A DNA stretch of 33,253 nt from NCBI GenBank assembly GCA_046318155.1, contig JBKCUU010000057.1:1-33253 (forward strand). Direction: 5' to 3'. A program made the position numbers and the translations under genes. A model generated the notes under the pieces. The model searched no databases. It was not told the DNA's origin and saw only the letters and a program-made list of their open reading frames with translations. The stretch is from Bdellovibrio sp. (lineage in GTDB: Bacteria > Bdellovibrionota > Bdellovibrionia > Bdellovibrionales > Bdellovibrionaceae). Below are positions 1-3,153 of the stretch, piece by piece (position 1 is the stretch's first letter; each line of letters starts with the position of its first letter).

Positions 1-113
1 CCGGGAATTCCGCCCCCCCCCCGGGGCTTTTCTAAAGCCCGCTGCTCCCCGTCGAGCAGCGGCGCCTTTGCCTGAAGGGATCTTTTGTTTTAATCAACCA
101 AGCTGAACAGATA

Positions 114-941
114 TTAACCGACGAGTTTCAATGCCATGCCAGGGAAAGTGTTCGCCTGAGCCAGCACCGAAACCGCCGCTTGCTGAAGAACTTGGGCAGA
201 AGCCATCTCAGCAGACTCTTTTGCCACGTCGGTATCGCGGATACGTGAATTAGCCGCCGACAAGTTTTCATACTGGATATCTAAGTTCGATGTCGTTGCA
301 TTCAATCGACTTTGCACAGCACCGAAGTTGGCGCGAAGTTTACCGATTTTTTCAAGAGCATTGTCGACCGATACTAAACTCTCTCGAGCCGACGCCTTGT
401 CTTGCATACTGATTCCTTCTAGACCTAATTCACCTGATGTTGCGTTGGCATCGAGAGAATAAGAGATCGTGTTTTCCTCACCGGCAAATGGGCCGATGTG
501 AAAGGTCATCTCTCTGCCCGATCCGTCAAGAAGGTTCCTGTCACCAAACCGAGTTGTTTTGGCAATACGGTCGGCCTCCGCAATCAACTGATTGGTTTCT
601 TCTTGTAAAAAGCCGCGTTCTTTGTCGCCGATGGTATCAGATGCGCCCTGAATGCCCAACTCTCGCAAACGGATCGCGATGTTGGTAATTTCGTTCAGTC
701 CACCTTCAGAAATCTGAATGGATGATACCGCGCTGAAAGCATTGTTTCGAGCCATGGCCACCCCTCGGATTTGACTGCGCAAAGACTCAGAGATCGCAAG
801 TCCGGCGGCATCATCTGCGGCACTCACGATACGTGATCCCGAGGCCAAGGCTTGTGTCGCATGGTTCATGCGGCTTTGCTGTTTACCCAGCACTCGCTGG
901 GCAGAAATCGAAGGCAGATTCGTTTGTATTCTTAAGCCCAT
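114..941 (-). CDS. fliC: Flagellin (short, 275 aa, little hypervariable domain)
   Basis: N-term MGLRIQTN..ASGSRIVSAADDAAGLAISE and C-term RANFGAVQSRL..SRIRDTDVAKE..LAQAN; start moved to ATG 941 with SD GGGAGG. Confidence 0.95.
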   Translation of the reverse strand: MGLRIQTNLPSISAQRVLGKQQSRMNHATQALASGSRIVSAADDAAGLAISESLRSQIRGVAMARNNAFSAVSSIQISEGGLNEITNIAIRLRELGIQGASDTIGDKERGFLQEETNQLIAEADRIAKTTRFGDRNLLDGSGREMTFHIGPFAGEENTISYSLDANATSGELGLEGISMQDKASARESLVSVDNALEKIGKLRANFGAVQSRLNATTSNLDIQYENLSAANSRIRDTDVAKESAEMASAQVLQQAAVSVLAQANTFPGMALKLVG

Positions 942-1147
942 AAAACAGTCCTCCCAACAGACTTGCGCAATCAGAGTTGCGACTAATGACCTTTGTTTAA
1001 TTGGAGGCCCTGCAAGCCTTGTGGTGACAGACACTCGGCTTGCAGGATTCTTCGAGGAGGACTTTCAGAAATTCTCGTTTGCTTGACTGCGCCGAGGTTT
1101 CTTTGGGTCGATCTCTTTGTCTCCAACGTGTTTAACTACCAACCCAC

Positions 1148-1174
1148 TTCTCGGCCTTGGTCTGGGAACCTTGA
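1148..1174 (-). promoter_or_regulatory. Sigma28/FliA-type promoter of the flagellin at 114-941
   Basis: Minus strand TCAA-N15-GCCGAGAA vs consensus TAAA-N15-GCCGATAA. Confidence 0.75.
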
Positions 1175-1327
1175 GGACCTTGGTCTAGTCTAGTTTATAA
1201 CGCGACGCATCTTGTATTTGATATTGCAACAGAAAGAGCAAAGTAATTTTTTTTAGACCAAGGTCTAGTTTGACTCAAGCTGAGTCAAAAAAAGGAGAGC
1301 CCGTTGCCAGCCCTAGAAGGGTGCTCC

Positions 1328-1366
1328 AAAAAGGGAAAACCCGATCTCTTTTGAGAGGAGTCGGGT
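1328..1366 (-). terminator. Probable intrinsic terminator after the flagellin at 1423-2250
   Basis: Hairpin ACCCGA..TCTCT-TTTG-AGAGG..TCGGGT followed on the minus strand by TTTTCCCTTTTT. Confidence 0.5.
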
Positions 1367-1422
1367 CTTGTCTTGTTCTTTTTGAGCTTTGGCGGGGTCA
1401 ACAGGAGCCTGAAGAGCTGTGG

Positions 1423-2250
1423 TTAGGCCAGGAGTTTCAAAACATTCAGGGGGAACTGGTTCGCCTGCGCAAGAACCGCCACTTGGTATTGCTGAAGCGC
1501 TTGCTTCTTGAACATCTCACTCGTCGCCTCGGCAAAGTCGGTGTCTGCGATGCGCGAGTGCGCCGCCTGCAAATTTTCGTGTTGAACGGCGGCGTTGCTG
1601 ACGACGCTCTCGAGCCTTGATTGAATGGCGCCAAAATTAGCTCTTGCTTTAGCAAGAGTCGTGAGTGCCGAATCAAGCGACTCTAATGAATCGAGCGCCT
1701 CACTTCGGTCATCAACCGATAGGCTCGACACTCCGAGACCACTCGCGGTGGTATTGGTGTTCGACTCATACTTAATCACATTCTCTTCGCCTTTATAGGC
1801 GCCGACCTGAAATTCAAAACTCTTGCTGTCGCCCGAGAGCAATTTGTGAGAGCCAAACTGCGTGGTTTGCGCAATCCGATCGACTTCGCTTCGAAGTTGC
1901 TTAAACTCCATATCCAGCAACTCCCGCTCTTGATCGTCAAAAGTGTCGCTCGCTCCCTGCACAGACAGCTCGCGCATTCGAATCAGAATATTGTTTTGTT
2001 CGTTCAGCCCGCCCTCGGCGATTTGCACAAAAGAAATCGCGTTGTCTGCATTCATCTGCGCCGCGCGTGTCCCTTTTATTTGCCCCCGCAACCGTTCAGC
2101 AATGGCAAAGTCACCGGCGCCAACCGTCGGGTCAGAAAATCGACTGCCAGAAGCCAATTGCTTCAGGTTACTTTCAACTTTTCGTTGCGATTGGACCAAT
2201 TGCCGTTGCGCCGCAATCGACGCGAGGTTGGTATTAATTCGTAGTCCCAC
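1423..2250 (-). CDS. fliC: Flagellin (short, 275 aa), paralogue
   Basis: MGLRINTN..QIAEGGLNE..RMRELSVQ..RANFGAIQSRL..SRIADTDFAE..LAQANQ; GTG start, SD AAGGAGG. Confidence 0.95.
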   Translation of the reverse strand: MGLRINTNLASIAAQRQLVQSQRKVESNLKQLASGSRFSDPTVGAGDFAIAERLRGQIKGTRAAQMNADNAISFVQIAEGGLNEQNNILIRMRELSVQGASDTFDDQERELLDMEFKQLRSEVDRIAQTTQFGSHKLLSGDSKSFEFQVGAYKGEENVIKYESNTNTTASGLGVSSLSVDDRSEALDSLESLDSALTTLAKARANFGAIQSRLESVVSNAAVQHENLQAAHSRIADTDFAEATSEMFKKQALQQYQVAVLAQANQFPLNVLKLLA

Positions 2251-2388
2251 GTGAAAAACCTCCTTGATAAGGAGGAGTCAAAACACCTTGTTTCCGGGCC
2301 TGGACCTTAGGCTGTCACACCCAAGTCCTTGAGTCCCGTTCGCCCACAGATTCGACCCTTAAAGAACCTTCTAACGCAGTCTTCATAC

Positions 2389-2415
2389 TATTCGGCGCAG
2401 CGCGTCAAGACTTTA
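2389..2415 (-). promoter_or_regulatory. Sigma28/FliA-type promoter of the flagellin at 1423-2250
   Basis: Minus strand TAAA-N15-GCCGAATA. Confidence 0.8.
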
Positions 2416-2520
2416 GGATTATTTAGGTTTTTAGGAATTACCAGGTGCAAGTTCGAGCAAAGATTGGGGTTTCTCAAATTGAGACCGAGGCCTCGCCTTT
2501 GGCCCTGATGAGGACACGCC

Positions 2521-3153
2521 CTAAACAAGTCTTCCATTTTCGATTTTCTGAACTCTCTGGGCAAGGGCTTTGAGATCACGGTCATCGTGCGTGACCAAAA
2601 GTGCCGGAATTTTTTCTTCAAGCAAAACTTCTCGAACCAGTTCGCGGGCTTCAGCTCGCAAGTTTTCATCCAAGGCCGAGAAGGGTTCGTCTAAAAGCAA
2701 AAACCGGGGCCGGCTCATCAAGGCCCGCGCCAGAGCCACCCGCTGCTTCTCCCCGCCTGAGAGCAACTGCGCCTTGCGGGTCAAGCAACTCTTCAGACCC
2801 AACCGCTCGGATAGCCGCGAAAGCTGCGCTTTGGTATCAGCCTTGCTCAAGCTTTTGGCTTCGGCCGCGAAGAGAATATTTTCTTGAGCGGTCAAATGCG
2901 GAAATAATTCGTAGTTTTGAAAGACGACGCCCAGATTTTTCTTGGCGACCGGGAGCTTGGCCAAGTCTTGATCCTTGAATATCCAACTAAGCCTGGAGCA
3001 CTCTTCTAGACCCAGCAGAACTCGAAACACCGAGGTTTTGCCCGAGCCACTCGGCCCCCACAGAGCCGTTACTCCAGAATCCAAAATCTCCCAGCGCGGA
3101 ATCTCGAGCTTGAAACTTCCGTAATCACGGATCAGATCCTTAACGACCGACAT
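2521..3153 (-). CDS. thiQ: ABC transporter ATP-binding subunit (ThiQ-like)
   Basis: Walker A GPSGSGKT, LSGGEKQRVA signature, LLLDEP Walker B; operon with thiP/thiB; start at ATG 3153. Confidence 0.8.
   Translation of the reverse strand: MSVVKDLIRDYGSFKLEIPRWEILDSGVTALWGPSGSGKTSVFRVLLGLEECSRLSWIFKDQDLAKLPVAKKNLGVVFQNYELFPHLTAQENILFAAEAKSLSKADTKAQLSRLSERLGLKSCLTRKAQLLSGGEKQRVALARALMSRPRFLLLDEPFSALDENLRAEARELVREVLLEEKIPALLVTHDDRDLKALAQRVQKIENGRLV

Follow-up and report, generated by a model that had tools for sequence, protein, structure and literature searches.

The window analysed here, a 33,253-nt stretch of Bdellovibrio DNA, opens with a pair of minus-strand flagellin genes, B (2250-1423) followed by A (941-114), in a genome (G000) that carries seven flagellins. 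Each encodes a protein of 275 aa that falls in a clade of its own, of 119 proteins for A and of 75 for B. The B gene starts with GTG, and the start codons of several B genes are unusual or unclear. Matches to the sigma28 consensus place a sigma28-type promoter before each gene, at 1148-1174 for A, where it is kept in relatives, and at 2389-2415 for B, both on the minus strand. The resulting leaders are about 200 nt (A) and 130 nt (B) long, and a terminator-like hairpin (1286-1314, minus strand) lies after B and upstream of the A promoter. Because each gene has its own promoter and this hairpin follows B, the two leaders should belong to separate transcripts, and any A-B pairing would therefore occur in trans. 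A single cis-acting transcript is ruled out by the separate promoters, the terminator and the existence of distant or inverted partners.

Two kinds of DNA motif accompany these promoters. A near-palindromic motif, also found in most relatives, lies upstream of the A promoter (window 1200-1209, plus strand) and within the spacer of the B promoter (2396-2405, minus strand). It is likely a shared transcription-factor site, perhaps with opposite action on B and A. A CTAGACC/CTGGACC-type repeat (1155-1195 and 1250-1272 of the window, and the C promoters of L035-L064) occurs in and upstream of the promoters of A and of C, the third flagellin gene described below, and again inverted just past the preceding gene, and is a second candidate regulator site. 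Short conserved motifs are present in the flagellin promoters too.

The first-pass annotation had reported a hairpin in each leader, and both are present on the minus strand, at the coordinates it gave and in minimum-energy folds. Hairpin 2 of A (1009-1046) is built on a 10-bp stem (1009-1018/1037-1046), which leads through a 2×2 internal loop and three further base pairs to an apical loop of 8 nt (1024-1031) predicted to be 95-100% unpaired. The B hairpin (2302-2328) has a stem with one bulged base (2302-2311/2320-2328) and a loop at 2312-2319, of which only six nucleotides (2313-2318) are open, since 2312 and 2319 are predicted to close as a U-G pair. Consequently, of the seven contiguous loop-loop pairs originally counted, six are freely available and the seventh would require the U-G closing pair to melt. 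The predicted energy of the 7-bp loop duplex is -10.3 kcal/mol. When the B leader was shuffled 1500 times, a loop with seven pairs to the A loop never arose, and one with at least six pairs arose 11 times. Overall, the stability of the two leaders is unremarkable (z of -1.08 for A and -0.11 for B in minimum-energy folds). The B leader also contains a UGUGGGC arm (2342-2350, minus strand) that is conserved in 61 of 71 B leaders and often shows complementarity to the start region of the same gene, with predicted pairing above 0.4 in just 23.

A third flagellin leader, which the annotation had overlooked, resides on another contig of the same genome (G000:C97, loop 17118-17129). Its loop heptamer is identical to that of B. 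To place this gene, C, and its relatives, 317 distinct flagellins were classed by tree into an A clade (119), a B clade (75) and a C/D/E group (121), with C defined as the first C/D/E-group gene downstream of A or the best match. Merging of duplicates left 149 genome groups, 108 of which have A plus B or C, and kinship among these genomes means that the counts below overstate independence. Most of the 76 loci with A relatives belong to Bdellovibrio, Pseudobdellovibrionaceae or Bdellovibrionales. The usual gene order is B-A-C, with B and A separated by 2.9-6.6 kb in 9 of 89 locus pairs and C at 1.2-5.6 kb. Exceptions include an inverted C (L074) and a B gene on a separate contig (G022). In genus g10, A-clade proteins of 274-275 aa share 53-58% identity with their own C proteins of 276-277 aa, values that resemble the 274 aa and 55.3% identity of FliC1 and the 277 aa of FliC2 (Table 1 of PMC2791853). 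In addition, the promoter printed for Bd0606 (PMC3627812) is the C promoter sequence in L142, L148 and L149. By sequence, then, A is the counterpart of FliC1 and C that of FliC2, two proteins that are direct neighbors in the B. bacteriovorus filament, FliC1 preceding FliC2 (PMC2791853).

Judged by complementarity, the C leader is the near-universal partner of the A loop. The two loops form seven of seven Watson-Crick pairs in 65 of 71 genomes, where 20000 permutations gave a mean of 36.7 and a maximum of 48, and at least six pairs in 70 of 71. In the 71st genome (G022) the C loop was called in error, and the tree count omits it. Among the remaining 70, the 5-nt loop cores change 11 times in A, 10 times in C and 11 times jointly, such that every change in C coincides with one in A (about 10 joint changes). 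Three genomes have the A loop without a C loop (G014, L074, G022), three have a C loop without loop 2 of A (G036, L108, L131, the last interrupted by a contig end) and seven have neither. A strict pattern for the C element, which has low sensitivity, matched 9 of the order's 52 genomes and none of 199 others. In L025 (G036), where A lacks loop 2, the C loop is complementary to the loop of A hairpin 1, the site of B's tail, a possible rewiring as read from the sequence.

The first ~125 nt of the A leader comprise a 5' tail, a helix termed P1, and hairpins 1 and 2 with a CU-rich linker between them. The 5' tail and 5' arm of P1 (1121-1140, minus strand) are complementary to an internal site of C (G000:C97:17057-17073), which lies a median of 54 nt past the C loop. 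All ten pairs of this contact are kept in 62 of 76 cases, well above the permutation mean of 29.5 and maximum of 38. Helix P1, closed by a strand at 1000-1007 (minus strand) that pairs with the 5' arm and is followed by an AU-rich linker, reaches a predicted -6 kcal/mol or lower in 84 of the 90 A leaders, with variants matched. The closing strand resembles the C site, and it is also complementary to the Shine-Dalgarno (SD) motif. The CU-rich linker (1054-1063, minus strand) is predicted to pair with the SD region of A (946-955, minus strand) in the minimum-energy fold, and so is already engaged in the free A leader of G000. These structural statements rest on folds of individual sequences; when 25 A modules were aligned by plain MAFFT, RNAalifold returned 0 consensus pairs because helix lengths vary among them. 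The A tail and loop 2 are lost or degenerate together with the C loop in four genomes (G002, G019, G020, G054).

The annotation had called the loop kiss a second contact, and it does accompany a longer first one. The 5' tail of B (2353-2381, minus strand) is antisense to the part of the A leader that holds hairpin 1 and the flank on its 5' side (1074-1110, minus strand), with 23 pairs and -28.7 kcal/mol in the window. A cognate duplex of -18 kcal/mol or better is predicted in 71 of 71 genomes, with a mean of -34.9 kcal/mol against -22.4 for non-cognate combinations and a median of 15 Watson-Crick pairs out of 16, and the own partner ranks first in 33 of these genomes and among the top three in 48. 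The two contacts of B run parallel to their sites on A, giving a crossed geometry that counts against the proposal developed below. At non-canonical positions of the tail contacts, G-U exceeds A-C on the transcribed strand by 36:15 and 17:6, as expected for RNA pairing. The B gene is absent from B. bacteriovorus-like genomes, and was not found in eight of ten genomes checked (five of them complete), the others being a diverged candidate (G083) and a draft (G091). The eight A leaders from genomes without B have no hairpin 1. A crude pattern-based tabulation of hairpin 1 and the B gene (66 with both, 33 with neither, 9 and 8 discordant) was not counted as evidence.

Contacts of the B loop are less regular. 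Among 63 Bdellovibrionales genomes that have B and the A loop, and with the match required to lie in a hairpin loop, the B loop offers at least five contiguous pairs to its own A loop in 27, at least six in 23 and seven in 17, compared with shuffle expectations of 2.5, 0.7 and 0.1. Of 39 other flagellin leaders, one has a 5-pair match and none reaches six. Covariation in homologues had been proposed as a check on the kiss, and loop complementarity is indeed conserved and covarying: the B loop matches a variant A loop in G000 and G001 as well as in G005 and G022. These fall at three distinct points of the tree and are the three lineages that make up the B-loop covariation. A 6-pair loop is nevertheless missing in 40 of the 63 B leaders, including nine genomes with a variant A loop, and two B loops retain only 5 nt of pairing at the expected place. 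Presence of the loop changes 12 times on the tree versus a shuffled mean of 18.9, and its position ranges from 38 to 156 nt past the promoter. Compensation by the loop for a weak tail duplex is ruled out (24 versus 38 genomes, p 0.21; p 0.93 with collapsed clades). The proposed B-A pair is thus a match beyond chance and, in our assessment, a probably genuine kiss. It is also optional, occurring in 23 of 63 genomes with about 12 gains or losses, and the main partner of the A loop is C. By sequence, the B-A kiss is likely an optional second grip, aimed at the loop used by C.

In the genomes collected, A, B or C showed no recurrent perfect match of at least 9 nt to the other four flagellin leaders. 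These leaders have features of their own. An AGUAGGU motif, often in a hairpin loop, is common to C leaders (L035-L064) and to E leaders of genus g10 (L202, L203, L207, L208), with no partner at 9 nt or longer. ACCCA lies near the 5' end of all eight F (fliC3-like) leaders (L034, L222-L239). Several GGA motifs in small hairpins of C, D, E, F and H leaders (L032-L034, L202-L241; L201) resemble CsrA sites, and a second, CsrA-type control layer on these leaders is likely.

With high confidence, then, we regard the flagellin leaders as joined by conserved RNA-RNA pairing, and the comparative data mark the first ~125 nt of the A leader as the hub, with three sites that covary in sequence. As to what this pairing does, the best explanation as a whole, to which we give about an even chance, is a three-mRNA network in which A is the hub, C performs a handover and B holds A low. 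C would kiss loop 2 of A, then capture the A 5' tail and open helix P1, an invasion from the tail that the likeness of C's site to the closing strand of A would permit once the kiss has formed. The freed CU-rich strands would pair with the SD of A and lower its translation, handing filament growth from FliC1 to FliC2. B would dock by its tail and, where its loop exists, occupy loop 2 as well, such that B-bound A is held low and closed to C, with B and C competing for the hub.

Folding models predict that either partner would modestly close the ribosome site of A. When the A tail is blocked, the cost of opening the A ribosome site rises by a median of 1.3 kcal/mol versus -0.15 for random blocks (31 of 36), and blocking the B site on A raises it by 0.49 versus -0.35 kcal/mol (27 of 34). 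These effects, at 0.5-1.3 kcal/mol, are small, and the SD already being partly paired in free A of this genome also speaks against the handover. When the paired sites are blocked, nothing changes at the ribosome sites of B and C (median changes of 0.05 and 0.0 kcal/mol in 62 and 56 genomes). An activation cascade, in which B frees the ribosome site of A and A that of C, was rejected, as the models close A's site and leave B's and C's unchanged. Four-way strand exchange through a helix in C resembling P1 was also discarded (-5.05 versus -4.95 kcal/mol for shuffled arms in 62 leaders, no better). Attack-phase B. bacteriovorus contains about six times more fliC1 than fliC2 RNA (11,984 versus 1,932 RPKM; PMC3627812), which is a poor stoichiometry for silencing of A by C. 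On balance, that A is the repressed target of the modelled interactions falls just short of an even bet.

More speculatively, the RNAs could form a relay that encodes the block order of the filament, each later mRNA capturing the 5' tail of an earlier one. All three mRNAs would be made from the same kind of promoter, A would take the tail of B and C that of A, and competition of B and C for the one kissing loop of A, on which they would exclude each other, would serve as a mutual-exclusion latch. If true, this would be a timer made of mRNA leaders only, with orthogonal and evolvable loop codes. We consider this possible though unlikely.

Slightly less probable still is that the same pairings operate in the opposite direction. 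Cleavage within the AU-rich linker, or transcription ending early there, might set the 5' module of A free as a small RNA that controls B and C, altering their translation or stability, for instance by covering a ribosome standby site in the B 5' tail. In B. bacteriovorus, this RNA would be APsRNA3, a 128-nt, FliA-driven species that extends from 276 to 149 nt upstream of the fliC1 start (PMC3627812). For a leader of such length, this corresponds to the module as far as the U run that follows P1, less about 4 nt of the toehold at its beginning. The median module length is 125 nt, AU-rich sequence comes next in 64 of 86 leaders, the excess of fliC1 RNA would suit such a regulator, and FlaX, which blocks a standby site on flaB, provides a precedent (PMC11879080). 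Weighing against release are the unchanged ribosome sites of B and C in the models and RNA contigs X7, X9 and X11, which begin close to the promoter or run across it and continue from the module into the coding region, although contigs cannot prove a single transcript. X2, which spans everything, likewise crosses from module to gene, X11 starts 280 nt before the start codon, and X1, X10, X12 and X16 start past the module. The RNA runs were available as contigs only, lacking ends and strand, so that uncovered parts prove nothing.

We regard it as improbable that the duplexes (20-30 bp for B-A, about 13-20 bp for C-A) act through decay, by recruiting RNase III or by shielding 5' ends from nucleases, with the kisses only speeding docking. 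In favor of this, the B-A duplex has considerable length and few mismatches, each captured tail forms the 5' end of its transcript, and hly is reported to shield prsA2 (PMC8722363). Decay would, however, leave unexplained the conserved P1 helix, whose closing strand both mimics C and is complementary to the SD. Very little probability remains for a genuine A-C kiss with an incidental or functionless B loop as by-product. Its absence from many B leaders, its variable position and a tail duplex that is no weaker where the loop exists would all fit this account, but the loop occurs about 30-fold above shuffles, in a hairpin setting that the test itself prescribes, and follows changes of the A loop in three lineages. 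Protein-binding sites or DNA-level inverted repeats, brought to mind by the CsrA gene in the genome and by the short conserved motifs in the promoters, can be dismissed almost entirely, because they would need no complementary change in two genes and fit neither the G-U excess on the transcribed strand nor partners separated by 1.2-6.6 kb, placed on different contigs or encoded on opposite strands.

The three-mRNA network, with A as its hub, bears on the question of how several flagellins under one sigma factor come to form ordered blocks, for which PMC2791853 gives the order and no mechanism. We predict that the pairing, as modelled, helps to order flagellins along the filament. As the covarying contacts join the mRNAs of the FliC1-like and FliC2-like proteins, which are filament neighbors, a role in block order is testable by a few point mutations in a predator that is harmless and can be cultured. 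The natural loop and tail variants are also candidate orthogonal RNA switches.

A search of Rfam 15 at gathering score detected no family in window positions 1-3000, with one chance hit at 13.9 bits, and no hits in four related loci. Literature on Bdellovibrio flagellin leaders, small RNAs, kissing and mRNA-mRNA interactions, in a search that covered few subscription journals, does not describe the pairing, and the three-mRNA network is apparently unpublished. The closest published object is APsRNA3 of B. bacteriovorus HD100, which matches the 5' module of the fliC1 leader in position and length, has a FliA promoter and is specific to the attack phase (PMC3627812). There it is listed as an intergenic sRNA with no function, partner or link to fliC1, and a search with the same coverage of journals found it named in its first paper only. 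A role in the pairing network would give APsRNA3 a function, albeit one that excludes the A-B kiss, which does not occur in this species because it has no B gene. A neighboring RNA from the same report, APsRNA4 (98 nt), begins 30 nt past the fliC1 stop (PMC3627812) and is possibly a FlaX-like 3'-UTR RNA.

The first-pass annotation had likened the loops to those of ColE1 RNAI/RNAII and CopA/CopT. As in these systems and pMV158 RNAII, loop-loop recognition is combined with capture of a single-stranded 5' tail (PMC4485353), and both flagellin loops are predicted open and covary. The parallel fails beyond this point. The plasmid antisense RNAs are cis-encoded, fully complementary, untranslated regulators (PMC4485353), whereas the flagellin leaders belong to mRNAs, are encoded in trans and match only in part, one hub serving two partners; A and B lie on the same strand, with separate promoters 1.2 kb apart. 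Moreover, a YUNR motif, read for by eye, is absent from the A and B loops of the window and from the consensus loops. The pMV158 RNAII, too, uses a loop plus a tail without a U-turn (PMC4485353).

Among flagellin RNAs, FlaX of Vibrio cholerae resembles the present case in that RNA from a flagellin transcript makes multiple base-paired contacts with the leader of a paralog's mRNA, flaB (PMC11879080). That pairing changes filament composition (PMC11879080); the same outcome for the leaders studied here is a prediction of our model. FlaX is an sRNA processed from a 3' UTR; it depends on ProQ and masks SD-like sites (PMC11879080). The flagellin leaders do not belong to this type, as all of their sites lie between promoter and start codon. 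They are 5' leaders that link three mRNAs through loop and tail sites away from the SD and covary across an order. The pairing of the hly 3' UTR with the prsA2 5' UTR in Listeria monocytogenes joins two full-length mRNAs in trans and involves one 5' end (PMC8722363), as the flagellin pairing would if the leaders act within their full-length mRNAs. It differs in having one contact, from 3' UTR to 5' UTR, between unrelated genes, with a stabilizing effect and no kissing loops mentioned in the abstract (PMC8722363). The flagellin leaders, which are separately transcribed and carry conserved complementary untranslated regions, would thus constitute a rare mRNA-mRNA pairing that is backed by covariation across an order.
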